Shown piece after piece: positions 15,326 through 19,786 of a stretch of 26,260 bases of DNA. The stretch covers positions 1-26,260 of IMG/VR virus record IMGVR_UViG_3300025030_001424; one strand, given 5' to 3'. The position numbers and the translations under genes were made by a program. Position 1 is the stretch's first letter, and every line of letters begins with the position of its first letter. Under the pieces are notes generated by a model. That model worked only from the letters and a program-made list of their open reading frames with translations. It made no database searches and had not been told where the DNA came from. The stretch is from a virus (taxonomy: Duplodnaviria > Caudoviricetes).

Positions 15326-15454
15326 ATGGAAAACGAACCTGAAAATCCAGAAGAGGAACCGAAAGAAGGACTGGATGAAGAAGTAGATATTATCGAACCT
15401 GAAGAAGATGTCGATTTTCCAGCTGAAGGTGAAATAGATGATGAGGAAGTTTAA
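15326..15454 (+). CDS. 42-aa highly acidic peptide MENEPENPEEEPKEGLDEEVDIIEPEEDVDFPAEGEIDDEEV (not in ORF track)
   Basis: ATG 6 nt after the holin stop; 22 of 42 residues are D/E and only one is K; strong GAA/GAT codon pattern. Confidence 0.75.
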   Translation: MENEPENPEEEPKEGLDEEVDIIEPEEDVDFPAEGEIDDEEV

Positions 15455-15468
15455 TTCGTTTCTCACTC

Positions 15469-15507
15469 CCGTCTTAAAGTAATCTATAATGGGAAACTGT
15501 AAGACGG
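15469..15507 (+). promoter_or_regulatory. -10 box TATAAT (15485-15490) enclosed by an inverted repeat
   Basis: CCGTCTTAAAGT (15469-15480) and ACTGTAAGACGG (15496-15507) are 11/12 complementary; no good -35. Confidence 0.5.
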
Positions 15508-15511
15508 AGGA

Positions 15512-15548
15512 GGGATACGAATTGGTCGTATTCCACTGCTCTTTAACA
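15512..15548 (+). promoter_or_regulatory. Hairpin plus boxA antitermination site (rrn-type nut-like element)
   Basis: 9-bp stem GGGATACGA-attgg-TCGTATTCC (15512-15534), then TGCTCTTTAACA (15537-15548), the rrn boxA consensus bound by NusB/NusE. Confidence 0.75.
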
Positions 15549-15558
15549 AGGAGGATTT

Positions 15559-15669
15559 ATGTGGAAAGTTATCAAAGCAAACTTTCGGTGGTTCTGGCTC
15601 GATGTTCAATATCGGCTAGCCTGTCGCAAAGCAAAAAAAGAATGGCGACATCGAAGATATGGGAGGTGA
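15559..15669 (+). CDS. 36-aa cationic Trp-rich peptide MWKVIKANFRWFWLDVQYRLACRKAKKEWRHRRYGR
   Basis: SD AAGGAGG at 15548-15554; its stop lies inside the next SD (GGAGGTGA). Confidence 0.65.
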   Translation: MWKVIKANFRWFWLDVQYRLACRKAKKEWRHRRYGR

Positions 15670-15672
15670 TAT

Positions 15673-15819
15673 ATGTGCATCTTTTGCGGACACTCCGTCT
15701 GTCCTGATTGTGTGGACTATGCCCCGCTCGATTGGATAAGGTGTTGCTTCTGCAATCGCTGTTTCGCGAAAGGAGAAATGCCATGTACTGCGAAAAAGGA
15801 AAGGCATGGACAAGCCTGA
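15673..15819 (+). CDS. 48-aa Cys-rich peptide MCIFCGHSVCPDCVDYAPLDWIRCCFCNRCFAKGEMPCTAKKERHGQA (putative Zn finger)
   Basis: SD GGAGGTGA at 15662-15669; 9 Cys arranged in CxxC pairs. Confidence 0.65.
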   Translation: MCIFCGHSVCPDCVDYAPLDWIRCCFCNRCFAKGEMPCTAKKERHGQA

Positions 15820-16022
15820 TGCTCCGAGATGACGGCACCTACACTCATTATTGTAGCGGTTGCAGAGATACTCACGATGTGAAATATCCCGTACCAGAAA
15901 AGGAGGAGAAAAATGGAACACCCGATTTGCAAAGTATTCTTCTCGAAGATAAGCCCACAAGACGCATGGACATTATCAGTCGCTTTCGGTCTTCACAGCA
16001 CCGACGAGAGTTGGTACGATGA
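15783..16022 (+). CDS. 79-aa protein MYCEKGKAW...HYCSGCRDTH... (start revised from track ORF 15708)
   Basis: SD AAGGAG at 15770-15775, 7 nt before the ATG; C...CxxC...H Zn-ribbon-like N-terminal half. Confidence 0.55.
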   Translation: MYCEKGKAWTSLMLRDDGTYTHYCSGCRDTHDVKYPVPEKEEKNGTPDLQSILLEDKPTRRMDIISRFRSSQHRRELVR

Positions 16023-16053
16023 CCATTGGAACGATTCCGTTAGTAACTGCTAG
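15913..16053 (+). CDS. 46-aa peptide MEHPICKVFFSKISPQDAWTLSVAFGLHSTDESWYDDHWNDSVSNC
   Basis: SD AAGGAGGAG at 15900-15908; TAG at 16051-16053 just before the 3' hairpins. Confidence 0.6.
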   Translation: MEHPICKVFFSKISPQDAWTLSVAFGLHSTDESWYDDHWNDSVSNC

Positions 16054-16074
16054 TGTTCCTCCCCACGTTCTTTA

Positions 16075-16110
16075 GGAGGGGTAGTCAGATTTGTCTGGCT
16101 CCACCCCTCC
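16075..16110 (+). other. Stable 3' RNA hairpin
   Basis: GGAGGGGT/ACCCCTCC (8 bp) plus AGTCAGA/TCTGGCT (7 bp, one G-U), loop TTTG, CC bulge. Confidence 0.7.
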
Positions 16111-16114
16111 GCCC

Positions 16115-16141
16115 AAATCACAGATTCGTCTGTGGTTTTTT
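16115..16141 (+). terminator. Rho-independent terminator
   Basis: AAATCACAGA-TTCG-TCTGTGGTTT with a UUCG loop, running into a T tract. Confidence 0.8.
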
Positions 16142-16144
16142 GTG

Positions 16145-16153
16145 TGATACAAT
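16145..16153 (+). promoter_or_regulatory. Extended -10 promoter TGATACAAT for khpA
   Basis: TGnTAcAAT directly after the terminator, 32 nt before ATG 16186. Confidence 0.5.
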
Positions 16154-16185: not shown

Positions 16186-16461
16186 ATGAATCCTGATCAA
16201 GTTTTTCTTGAAATGGTTGTAAAAGGAATTGTTGATTATCCTGATGATGTGGAAATTAAAAGAACCGTAGACGAAATGGGTGTTCTCTTAGATTTAAAAG
16301 TTAATCCTCTTGATATGGGGAAAGTGATAGGTCGCAGCGGCGTAACTGCTAAAGCGATTAGAACATTGGTTCAAATCATCGGCACTAAAAATAGTGCTCG
16401 GGTATCAATTAAAATTTTTGATCCAAGACCGAGAGAAGTAGGAGTAACTAGACCTGTTTAG
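16186..16461 (+). CDS. khpA: KH-domain RNA-binding protein KhpA (YlqC/UPF0109 family)
   Basis: VKGIVDYPDDV...DMGKVIGRSGVTAKAIRTL, with the GxxG loop of the KhpA family. Confidence 0.9.
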   Translation: MNPDQVFLEMVVKGIVDYPDDVEIKRTVDEMGVLLDLKVNPLDMGKVIGRSGVTAKAIRTLVQIIGTKNSARVSIKIFDPRPREVGVTRPV

Positions 16462-16879
16462 CTTTCCACATCTTATAACAGGTTGGAAATTCATGAGTTA
16501 GATCTACTTCTGGATCATTCATCATCTCTTTGAAAACCTTTACCTGAAGTTCCCCATCAAAAATAACATTCATAATTTCTCCCAGTTCTATGTCCGGTAA
16601 GATATTATATTTTTTAATATAATAATATAAAGTGCCTATTTTAAATTGAAGCAAACCATAAGAAGGAGTACCGTCAGTGTCAGCTTTATTAATAATCTGT
16701 TCGTTTCCACCAGATTCACATTGGATTAAAAAATCAAGAAATTCTTGATGCTTGTATTCTTCTTTAATCACTACTTCTTCCCGTATATAAGTTTCTTGTT
16801 GAGGGACAACCATCGCAATCGTTCCAGCGAAGGTGCTCATACCTGTTAAAAGTAAAAGCAATCCCTTATAGTGTAACAC
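16448..16879 (-). CDS. Membrane-anchored lysozyme-like / lytic transglycosylase domain protein
   Basis: N-terminal hydrophobic segment; LIQCESGGN (catalytic ES) and SYGLLQF motifs. Confidence 0.75.
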   Translation of the reverse strand: MLHYKGLLLLLTGMSTFAGTIAMVVPQQETYIREEVVIKEEYKHQEFLDFLIQCESGGNEQIINKADTDGTPSYGLLQFKIGTLYYYIKKYNILPDIELGEIMNVIFDGELQVKVFKEMMNDPEVDLTHEFPTCYKMWKAKQV

Positions 16880-16883
16880 TATT

Positions 16884-17099
16884 TTATTTTATCATAATTT
16901 TATTATACAGACTCGTAAGTCGAGAAGTCGGTTGACCCTCATGTCTAGCCACAAGCATCTCATCTGTAATTAGTCGCTTAACTTCTTCCTGTCTTTTAGA
17001 AAGCAAACTTTCTGCATACGTTGCCAATCTAGTAATTACATCAGAAGAAGTATCTTCTGGCAATAGTTTTGACAATTCTCTTTTAATTTCGTCTTTCAT
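16884..17099 (-). CDS. Small helical hypothetical protein
   Basis: ATGA-coupled to the upstream gene in a tightly tiled operon. Confidence 0.65.
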   Translation of the reverse strand: MKDEIKRELSKLLPEDTSSDVITRLATYAESLLSKRQEEVKRLITDEMLVARHEGQPTSRLTSLYNKIMIK

Positions 17100-18241: not shown

Positions 18242-19039
18242 TCAGCCGTGGGACTCAGCTATATGACTTGTTAATATTTCAAATCCGTCTTTCTTCACTA
18301 AAATCATATGTTCGAACATAGCGCAAACCTGATCATCAATACAAAACGCAGTCCATTTATCACCCATCATGCCTACAATGGCCTTGCCCGGAGTGATCAT
18401 CGGCTCAACACAGATAATTTGACCTTCTTCGAGCAAAATATTGTCGTTTGCCTTATCGTAATAGTGAGGAATAAAGGGTTTCATGTGCATTTCCTTGCCT
18501 ATAGCATGACCCCCAAAGTCCTTGATGACTCTAAATCCCATTTTGGAGACATAGTCCTCAATAGCTCTGCCTATGGCTGAAACAGGCGCTCCAGCTCTCA
18601 CTACCTCAATACCGCGATAAAGTCCTTCCTTAGCATATCTCAAGGCTCTAAGGCGTCTATTTGAGACATGTTCTCCGACAGGCACAGTCAGGGCGGCATC
18701 ACCGCAGACACCTTTATATTTTATTCCTAAGTCGTAAGTAATGATGTCTCCATCCTTTAAGGTCCTGTTATGGGGCGGAGCGTGACAAATCTCCTCATTG
18801 AGAGCAAAACAGACCGTAGCCGGATACGGGATCTCGGCCCACTTAGGATGATAGCCTTTATTAAAAGGAATGGCACCGGCTTCTCGGATTAGGCGTTCGG
18901 CCAGTTCGTCGAGCATGTCAAGACTGACTCCGGGAGCGGTCATTTTTTCAAGTTCAAGAAGTACTTTAGAAACAATATCGGCGGCTTTACGCATGTTTTC
19001 AAGTTCACTTCCAGAAGATAAAAATGAAAATAAACTCAT
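18242..19039 (-). CDS. map: Methionine aminopeptidase, type I
   Basis: All metal and substrate residues are present: ICH, YDLG, GDAA, GGHAIG, MH, VEPM, FEHM. Confidence 0.95.
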   Translation of the reverse strand: MSLFSFLSSGSELENMRKAADIVSKVLLELEKMTAPGVSLDMLDELAERLIREAGAIPFNKGYHPKWAEIPYPATVCFALNEEICHAPPHNRTLKDGDIITYDLGIKYKGVCGDAALTVPVGEHVSNRRLRALRYAKEGLYRGIEVVRAGAPVSAIGRAIEDYVSKMGFRVIKDFGGHAIGKEMHMKPFIPHYYDKANDNILLEEGQIICVEPMITPGKAIVGMMGDKWTAFCIDDQVCAMFEHMILVKKDGFEILTSHIAESHG

Positions 19040-19646: not shown

Positions 19647-19786
19647 TTAATAATCCGCCCACCTTGAGGATCATCAGAGGGAGAACAATGGCCAAAGTTT
19701 ACTTACGTTGGGAGGACAATATGAAGTGCCCTTTCCAAACCATTGACACGCCCCCTATGATAATCCCCAAAAGAGAGGACTACTAA
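19647..19786 (-). ncRNA. Unclassified 140-nt structured RNA element
   Basis: Nested stems of 10 bp, 15 bp and 8 bp plus an apical hairpin; every non-Watson-Crick pair in these three stems is G-U on the minus strand. Confidence 0.7.

Follow-up and report, generated by a model that had tools for sequence, protein, structure and literature searches.

How does a phage that otherwise does without Shine–Dalgarno (SD) sequences come to carry four small open reading frames (ORFs) in a row, each behind a strong SD, and what is the role of the boxA that runs into the first of them? The question is raised by positions 15469-16141 (the cassette) of a virus record of 26,260 bases (the window, by which we mean the whole of that stretch), the last 25,704 bases of which are identical to a 48,436-base record rated 99% complete. 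We show that the cassette is a real, mobile and selected unit. In our judgment the chances are even that it is a self-contained four-protein operon, which copies the SD-led accessory-gene class of its Paceibacteria-type host and is expressed in that cell. Every element listed in the initial annotation of this DNA, from the −10 box, the 9-bp hairpin and the boxA running into AAGGAGG, through the four ORFs, to the hairpin and the terminator with its UUCG loop, lies where it had been placed (Table 1), and the proposal that together they form a distinct unit, with signals unlike those of the rest of the genome, stands. The duplexes of the four starts with the anti-SD have energies of −11.4, −11.5, −8.7 and −11.6 kcal/mol (ORF1 to ORF4), whereas the 31 other starts picked in the window range from +1.8 to −6.6 kcal/mol and none of them reaches −7. 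Nor are SDs common when scored genome-wide: only two of the 47 genes of at least 90 residues reach −8 kcal/mol, and none −9.5. The four SD-led ORFs fall within 580 nt, and more than two such ORFs were obtained in 0 of 2000 composition-matched resamples.

The comparison with relatives carries the claim of selection and mobility. Related contigs were sought in eight of the 20 listed sequencing runs that hold the cassette, the listed runs being all DNA from groundwater, soil or sediment and none of them RNA. A contig of 772 bases spans ORF2 to the 3' hairpin with about 85% identity to the window and keeps an SD ahead of every ORF; for ORF2, a third variant contig was also seen. Another locus, L081, the one new locus in a metagenome scan that covered 57 of 64 parts, holds the 3' part of the cassette, followed by different genes (no KhpA) that are again SD-less. 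Among the 40 differences listed for the related contigs (the contigs hold more), third positions account for 9 of 14 where ORF2 does not overlap another ORF (15673-15769) and for 9 of 15 in ORF3 between 15783 and 15899, and the bias is modest when the two ORFs are taken as whole frames (p 0.03 and 0.12). All five listed differences at 15954-16022 are at first positions of the ORF3 frame, so that the last third of ORF3 is a passenger, unconstrained in its own frame. Residues 17-46 of ORF4 differ from L081 by a single residue, six of the seven base changes being synonymous. Selection extends to the RNA: in the 3' hairpin, four of seven inner pairs are changed on both sides in L081 with pairing kept and the loop, GAUUUGUC, identical, and in the terminator the outer stem is kept and the inner pairs and loop are swapped. 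Thus, the retention of the SDs, the third-position or synonymous bias in ORF2 to ORF4, the compensatory pairs of the 3' hairpin and the different neighbours together identify a mobile unit under selection, and coding selection on ORF2 to ORF4 upholds the earlier suggestion that the small proteins are real. The recurrence of the architecture in relatives holds in part: SDs, ORF2 to ORF4, 3' hairpin and terminator recur amid other neighbours, and the leader lies beyond the reach of the related contigs.

When viral contigs were scanned for the leader, for ORF2 and ORF4 and for the 3' element, the only true matches were two records, both identical to the window, and a phage of the same group lacking the cassette was not found. 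A profile of ORF4 run against 1.84 billion proteins gave four matches, namely a read-through call of the same DNA, two distant ORF4 relatives ending in Cys and a fish repeat, the last dropped as a chance match; the profile found nothing in 301 genomes of the host class (0/301, a search run without a positive control). The members of this small family (15961-16053; P0004, P0005 and P0007) vary in length and all end in Cys, and one ORF4 relative is on a contig of depth 197, compared with 15 for the phage (run X2).

None of the four ORFs, for which the initial annotation had suggested a possible role in host takeover or anti-defence, matched a family in Pfam, PHROGs, NCBIfam or PADLOC. The ESM Atlas gave no usable match for ORF4 and, for ORF2, only unnamed clusters under 0.9; a word-indexed protein search returned nothing for ORF2 or ORF4 and two near-identical sequences for ORF3. 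The coding status of ORF1 rests on its SD and on coupling, no homologue having been found in the data examined. ORF2 appears zinc-finger-like and ORF3 zinc-ribbon-like; zinc binding by these two proteins and RNA binding by ORF1 are guesses from composition. An AlphaFold model of ORF4 (5 sequences), with a predicted local distance difference test score of 58 and one helix at 15-24, was set aside. Also rejected, as a gene-caller artefact, was a predicted protein (P0003) that joins ORF1, ORF2 and ORF4 by reading TGA as Trp, because TGA is the stop codon of 10 of 29 long ORFs, because the frame of ORF3, between ORF2 and ORF4, is under selection, and because an insertion shifts the frame in a relative. 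The 772-base contig, read from loose ends, has about 100 extra bases, with another SD-like run and an ATG, before the core of ORF4. The cassette is not the sole site of SD use in the phage, since a further SD-led mini-ORF of 32 residues, with an inner 21-residue start after GGGAGG, is present at 19688-19786 (+), opposite in strand to the replication arm and in a 370-nt gap; it lacks boxA and gave no family match.

The leader is built around a boxA that is part of the first SD. The boxA 12-mer has a single exact copy in the window, against 0.009 exact 12-mers expected by base composition, and the pattern GYTCTTTAANA has its only exact match in the whole near-complete genome of 48,436 bases at the same place (15537). 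The last A of boxA is the first base of AAGGAGG, and boxA, overlapping the SD, ends 10 nt ahead of the ORF1 ATG, that is, within 50 nt of the start codon. Both the boxA consensus and the layout, a hairpin followed by boxA, are those of the rRNA leader as described in PMC13753749; PMC5725501 gives the same consensus. The region at 15450-15565 folds with a z-score of −4.2, and the longer inverted repeat has, as DNA, a z-score of −3.9. This 28-nt repeat and the 9-bp hairpin are mutually exclusive; the repeat can form only in DNA or in RNA reading through from the lysis genes, and no related contig extends to it. The boxA is able to pair with SD1, with a predicted −3.9 kcal/mol, and the predicted probability that SD1 is unpaired is 0.20 in the read-through RNA and 0.56 in an RNA starting at 15497. 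At the other end, the fold at 16050-16150 has a z-score of −4.3, and the UUCG loop of the terminator is closed by A-U, not C-G. No terminator is predicted between boxA and the end of the cassette, a unit of about 640 nt, and no Rfam family matches over the cassette. Behind the stop of ORF4, at 16056-16064 (+), a CCTC-rich tract resembling an anti-SD is present both in the window and in L081; it could pair with the SDs of the cassette.

Table 1. Features of the cassette, its leader and its downstream neighbour, by position in the window
Feature	Position	Strand	Remarks
28-nt inverted repeat (arms 15453-15480 and 15496-15523)	15453-15523	+	79% complementary; −10 box in the loop
−10 box TATAAT (15485-15490), then GGGA	15485-15494	+	transcription start predicted near 15497
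9-bp 5' hairpin preceding boxA	15512-15534	+	placed as in rRNA leaders; loop AUUGG
boxA, TGCTCTTTAACA	15537-15548	+	exact Escherichia coli consensus; shares one base with the first SD
SD1 and ORF1 (15559-15669), 36 residues	15548-15669	+	net charge +10, aromatic; TGA stop inside SD2
SD2 and ORF2 (15673-15819), 48 residues	15661-15819	+	nine Cys in CxxC pairs
SD3 and ORF3 (15783-16022), 79 residues	15770-16022	+	constrained part is the first 40-55 residues
SD4 and ORF4 (15913-16053), 46 residues	15900-16053	+	acidic-aromatic; core DAW..AFG..STDESW, C-terminal Cys; small family
G+C-rich bulged 3' hairpin, UUUG loop	16075-16110	+	compensatory changes; z-scores −4.7 and −5.0
Invariant GCCC linker and intrinsic terminator (16115-16141; stem 16115-16138, U tract)	16111-16141	+	from comparison with L081
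KhpA-family KH protein, without SD	16186-16461	+	PF13083, 1.9e-20; outside the cassette; host marker

In which cell would these signals be read? The cassette is located where the two arms of the genome meet, the lysis arm, with structural and lysis genes up to 15454 on the + strand, and the replication arm, with genes down to 16448 on the − strand. The KhpA of the phage has relatives at 23 loci of the genome collection, 19 of them at 57-68% identity and the other four, from other phyla, at 40-51%. The titles of the 19 closer loci name Liptonbacteria, Wolfebacteria, Paceibacterota, Saccharibacteria and Patescibacteria, six reading just "bacterium", so that all the named lineages are Patescibacteria. 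As the host class we use the class of a Wolfebacteria genome, G005, which we take to be the one called Paceibacteria. Mainly because of the identity of KhpA, and also because of the SD-less style of the genes, the host is probably an ultra-small Patescibacterium of the Paceibacteria type, in support of the host resembling the candidate phyla radiation (CPR) that had been suggested. A second possible marker was uninformative: the methionine aminopeptidase had no match at E 1e-60 in 301 class genomes and 37% identity to one class contig. Together with KhpA, this aminopeptidase (Pfam M24; 18242-19039, −) is one of the host-type genes of the phage. In the cultured-phage collection, the terminase has distant relatives only (25-29% identity). 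An ORF of 183 residues at 28917-29468 of G001 (one orientation; outside the window), tyrosine recombinase-like by eye and with 44% identity to a gene of L253, a class contig, is a hint that the phage may be temperate. Two other observations concern the surroundings of the cassette. Immediately upstream is an SD-less, strongly acidic ORF of 42 residues (15326-15454, +), and at 16868-16904 an A+T-rich stretch of 37 bases holds a palindrome and is matched, with 5 mismatches, by unrelated contigs in three runs; it may be a binding site or due to chance.

The machinery of the host class bears directly on what boxA could do there. NusB was found in 99 of 101 class genomes and Rho in none of the same 101 (these are incomplete metagenome-assembled genomes, MAGs, and the control was found in 8 of 14 named genomes); nor was Rho found over the cut-off in any of the five genomes nearest in KhpA. 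A boxA-like motif is present in 14 of 18 readable rRNA leaders of the class (shuffles gave a mean of 0.7; the motif was drawn from the same leaders), usually in a looser form, the exact copy of the window occurring in one of the 18 (G084). The TATAATGG −10 element also ends the 16S promoters of G005, G007, G086 and G233. Of the 30 genomes in which the 16S tail was read, taken from 49 given, 43 of which had been picked for a boxA-SD match, 20 lack CTCCT and 10 keep it, in agreement with the detection of an anti-SD in 48% of Parcubacteria according to the accessible part of PMC9297842. The anti-SD is kept in the genomes with most boxA-SD leaders (G051, G269 and G045). Separately, a TTGTYC motif was noticed to recur in class leaders (L161-L176, L181, G005 and G086), 30-110 nt ahead of the start of the 16S; it is weak in SD-led leaders, and TTGTCC was dropped there as a candidate.

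The combination of boxA and SD is not peculiar to the phage. A boxA with RGGAGG within the next 25 nt was matched 57 times (55 distinct matches), in 44 of the 401 class genomes searched, whereas the reversed pattern gave 22 matches; in 61 genomes of Clostridia, which are larger and use SDs, the figures are 4 and 5 for the control. A start codon lies 3-11 nt after the SD in 28 of 31 of these matches (30 loci fetched). Most of the matches examined are intergenic and many follow a clear sigma-70 promoter; in one, L149, 17 letters are the same as in the leader of the window. Leaders of this kind occur also in class genomes whose 16S has no anti-SD. We made crude gene calls on about 2 Mb of sequence drawn from seven class genomes; boxA with up to two mismatches is found there in 19 of 79 SD-led intergenic leaders versus 57 of 923 others (p 1.4e-6; about 3 for shuffles and permuted motifs, with a permuted mean of 3.0), and in 14 of 64 versus 36 of 718 when the genome pre-picked for a match is left out. 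The coupling of boxA to SDs is real; its strength, and the share of Nus binding as opposed to SD pairing, are uncertain. The claim that the signals of the cassette differ from those of the genome is therefore correct for the phage but does not extend to the lineage, to which boxA-SD leaders are not foreign. As read by eye, many of these leaders head ordinary-looking enzymes, which fits use inside the bacterium's own cell. Three of them, in anti-SD-positive genomes (L124 of G051, L132 of G045 and L145 of G345), head look-alikes, also by eye, of dCMP deaminase with thymidylate kinase, dUTPase and nucleotidyltransferase. Unrelated viral contigs (L024, L037, L044, L045 and L032) also have a boxA that comes after a promoter or a hairpin and is followed by an SD and a small first ORF. 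The unit in L032 (1460-1700; hairpin, boxA, SD and 35 residues) belongs to an unrelated and largely SD-poor large phage and was kept as a lead only.

Expression in the host could then proceed as follows. The host sigma-70 polymerase would start at the TATAAT-GGGA element, and the 5' hairpin and boxA would load NusB-S10, as on the rRNA leaders of the host. Bound on SD1, the complex would keep ribosomes off during transcription, as on suhB of E. coli, and the RNA would finish short, capped by the 3' hairpin and the terminator. Once the complex had left, all four peptides would be made in a burst, driven by the strong SDs and by the coupling of stops to starts, and their level would track that of free NusB-S10. 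In transcripts that enter from the lysis genes, the long repeat would form instead and boxA would be closed on SD1, so that the cassette would stay silent late in infection. One of the peptides is basic, two are likely to bind zinc and one is acidic-aromatic; they are predicted to bind proteins or RNA and to modulate the host or competing phages. Because Rho was not found, and in view of the suhB precedent, Nus binding is likely to gate translation rather than to protect it. In a host that has the anti-SD, as do the leader-richest genomes, no further reader of the SDs would be needed; a host that lacks it would imply either another reader in the cell or a message meant for the bacterium that carries the Patescibacteria cell (the basibiont).

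Several points weigh against such expression at home. E. coli and Salmonella are the only bacteria in which repression at suhB has been shown, and in them it feeds into Rho. The assignment of the host depends mainly on a single gene, that for KhpA. The sigma-70 promoter scan found no −35 good enough for listing at the TATAAT-GGGA element, and no related contig reaches the leader, so boxA has been seen in no relative of the cassette. A motif trained on rRNA leaders is weak in the SD leaders of the class (5 of 79 versus 17 of 923, p 0.024; 2 of 64 versus 11 of 718, not significant). Changing the conserved C gave 45 matches for three variants versus 31 for C in the same 201 genomes, and part of the boxA-SD signal may consist of pyrimidine tracts that simply pair with the SD. 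The class genomes are, moreover, mutually related, and some MAG contigs may be foreign. Finally, among the genomes nearest in KhpA, the 16S tail could be read in four, and none of these has the anti-SD; in a host of this kind, its own 16S would be unable to read the SDs of the cassette and another reader would be needed.

The reader could be the ribosomes of the basibiont. The RNA of the cassette, in protected form, or its DNA would pass to that bacterium, where SD-reading ribosomes would make four effectors; boxA would permit synthesis in the manner of rRNA without translation, and the 3' hairpin would serve as a tag for stability or export. We consider this unlikely, and are as doubtful of its general form, according to which a class of SD-led messages tagged with boxA is made by Patescibacteria and their phages for delivery to the basibiont, ribosomes without an anti-SD being unable to read them at home; the cassette would be one such message. 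In four anti-SD-less genomes, GGAGG precedes the first ATG by 4-10 nt in 62 of 1197 frames (6, 4, 5 and 4 in shifted bins), and these canonically spaced SDs need an explanation beyond the cell's own 16S; among the KhpA-nearest genomes, four of four with a readable 16S tail have no anti-SD. A relative diverged by about 15% keeps its SDs and has a new one ahead of an inserted ORF, the boxA has the exact E. coli form that is so scarce in the rRNA leaders of the class, and, according to PMC10746230, spacers in non-CPR bacteria, too, target some of the phages predicted to infect CPR. However, no route of transfer was found among the papers listed in the literature search, a third of the 16S tails read, those of the genomes richest in boxA-SD leaders included, keep CTCCT, and many class genes with such a leader look like ordinary enzymes. 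Furthermore, the benefit to a phage, whether lytic or temperate, of manipulating its host's host would be no more than indirect.

A different reading dispenses with Nus factors. The "boxA" would be mainly an anti-SD (CUCUUU-AAGGAG), and alternative 5' folds would open or close SD1 according to the start of transcription. The predicted shift in accessibility of SD1 between the two transcripts and the mutual exclusion of the long repeat and the 9-bp hairpin are what such a switch would produce, and the weak result of the rRNA-trained motif and the control in which the C was changed point the same way. Yet the pairing of boxA with SD1 is worth merely −3.9 kcal/mol, the TAACA half is not needed for it although the 12-mer is exact, and a hairpin followed by boxA is the layout of rRNA leaders (PMC13753749, accessible part). 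As the sole explanation we hold a switch to be improbable; it is compatible with Nus binding, and both can be true.

Alternatively, the cassette could be a recent import from the phage of an SD-using, Rho-containing bacterium, with promoter, boxA and SDs left over and unread in the present host. Its G+C content (0.46, against 0.38-0.39 in the flanks), the units of promoter, boxA, SD and small ORF in unrelated viral contigs and the failure to find the ORF4 family in 301 class genomes would all be expected of an import. Against this stand the synonymous bias, the kept SDs and the compensatory stem changes between two phages that are SD-less around the cassette, which indicate selection after divergence. 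Among the 50,697 phage records of the cultured-phage collection, there is no DNA match to the cassette and hence none of the kind expected of a donor, and boxA-SD leaders are less frequent in Clostridia than in the host class. This reading, already weakened, is quite improbable. That boxA recruits Nus factors in the CPR cell and so shields from Rho an RNA that is poorly translated there, as the initial annotation had proposed, is very improbable, for in spite of the exact boxA, the presence of NusB and the known role of boxA on rRNA (PMC13753749, accessible part), Rho was found neither in the 101 class genomes, 99 of which have NusB, nor in the five KhpA-nearest, the unit is short and has no predicted internal terminator, and a boxA that touches an SD represses translation in the suhB precedent.

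Among the papers listed by a literature search, with most subscription papers outside its reach, none connects leaders of the boxA or SD-led type with Patescibacteria or with phages that infect them, and the accessible parts of PMC13059738 and PMC12647753 hold nothing on such leaders in Patescibacteria phages. If a phage keeps only the signals that are read, a selected copy of a boxA-SD leader in an SD-less phage would be evidence that the SD-led class of Paceibacteria is a working route of expression and not debris of gene transfer. It also raises the question of what NusB and boxA do on mRNA in a lineage in which Rho was not detected, and for both matters the 700-nt cassette is a ready reporter. 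Should the SDs be read at home, the cassette would be a moron variant with a Nus-gated leader and would add three new families of micro-proteins; should they be read in the basibiont, this would be categorically new, the first phage to address the host of its host through mRNA signals.

Among known systems, the lambda nut site combines boxA and boxB with the N protein. It is mentioned in the discussion of PMC5725501. Like it, the cassette places a boxA in front of a small basic protein of a phage, here ORF1, which could bind RNA. The family searches, however, gave no match of ORF1 to a cognate N, the hairpin of the cassette is 5' of boxA, no boxB-like hairpin is present 3' of it, and SD and ORF1 follow directly; since it lacks boxB, the cassette is not of the lambda nut type. 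A few strong SDs in an otherwise SD-less genome are also found in Bacteroidetes, where rpsU has a rare regulatory SD (PMC7797042, accessible part), and in anti-SD-less Parcubacteria (PMC9297842, likewise in part). The cassette differs from these in being an accessory operon of a phage, and some members of the host class have lost the anti-SD rather than just hiding it.

The phage moron is an early accessory cluster of micro-proteins. Likewise, the cassette has its own terminator, with a candidate promoter element (a −10 with GGGA, without a −35), consists of small genes without known function at the junction of the genome arms and has different neighbours in a relative. It differs from a moron in that its translation signals differ in kind from those of the genome, with boxA on SD1, a covarying 3' hairpin and no match to a protein family. 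With the leader of rRNA operons, on which a complex of NusB-S10-NusG-NusA is assembled at the 5' hairpin and boxA, it shares the TATAATGG −10, the 5' hairpin and then the exact boxA (PMC13753749, accessible part), but its downstream RNA is protein-coding and SD-led, with ORF2 to ORF4 selected, in a class in which Rho was not detected. In E. coli suhB, boxA lies 6 nt before the SD and Nus factors repress translation; the boxA of the cassette is similarly beside an SD and within the same 50 nt of a start codon (PMC5725501, accessible part). Here, in contrast, boxA overlaps the SD, the cargo is not a Nus factor, the carrier is a phage and not a chromosome, and the Rho-dependent second step would be impossible in the likely host. 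Because Rho was not found, the cassette belongs neither to the rRNA antitermination class nor to that of suhB. By this comparison it would work most like a phage moron that has been given an rRNA-type leader (PMC13753749, accessible part) in the geometry of suhB.

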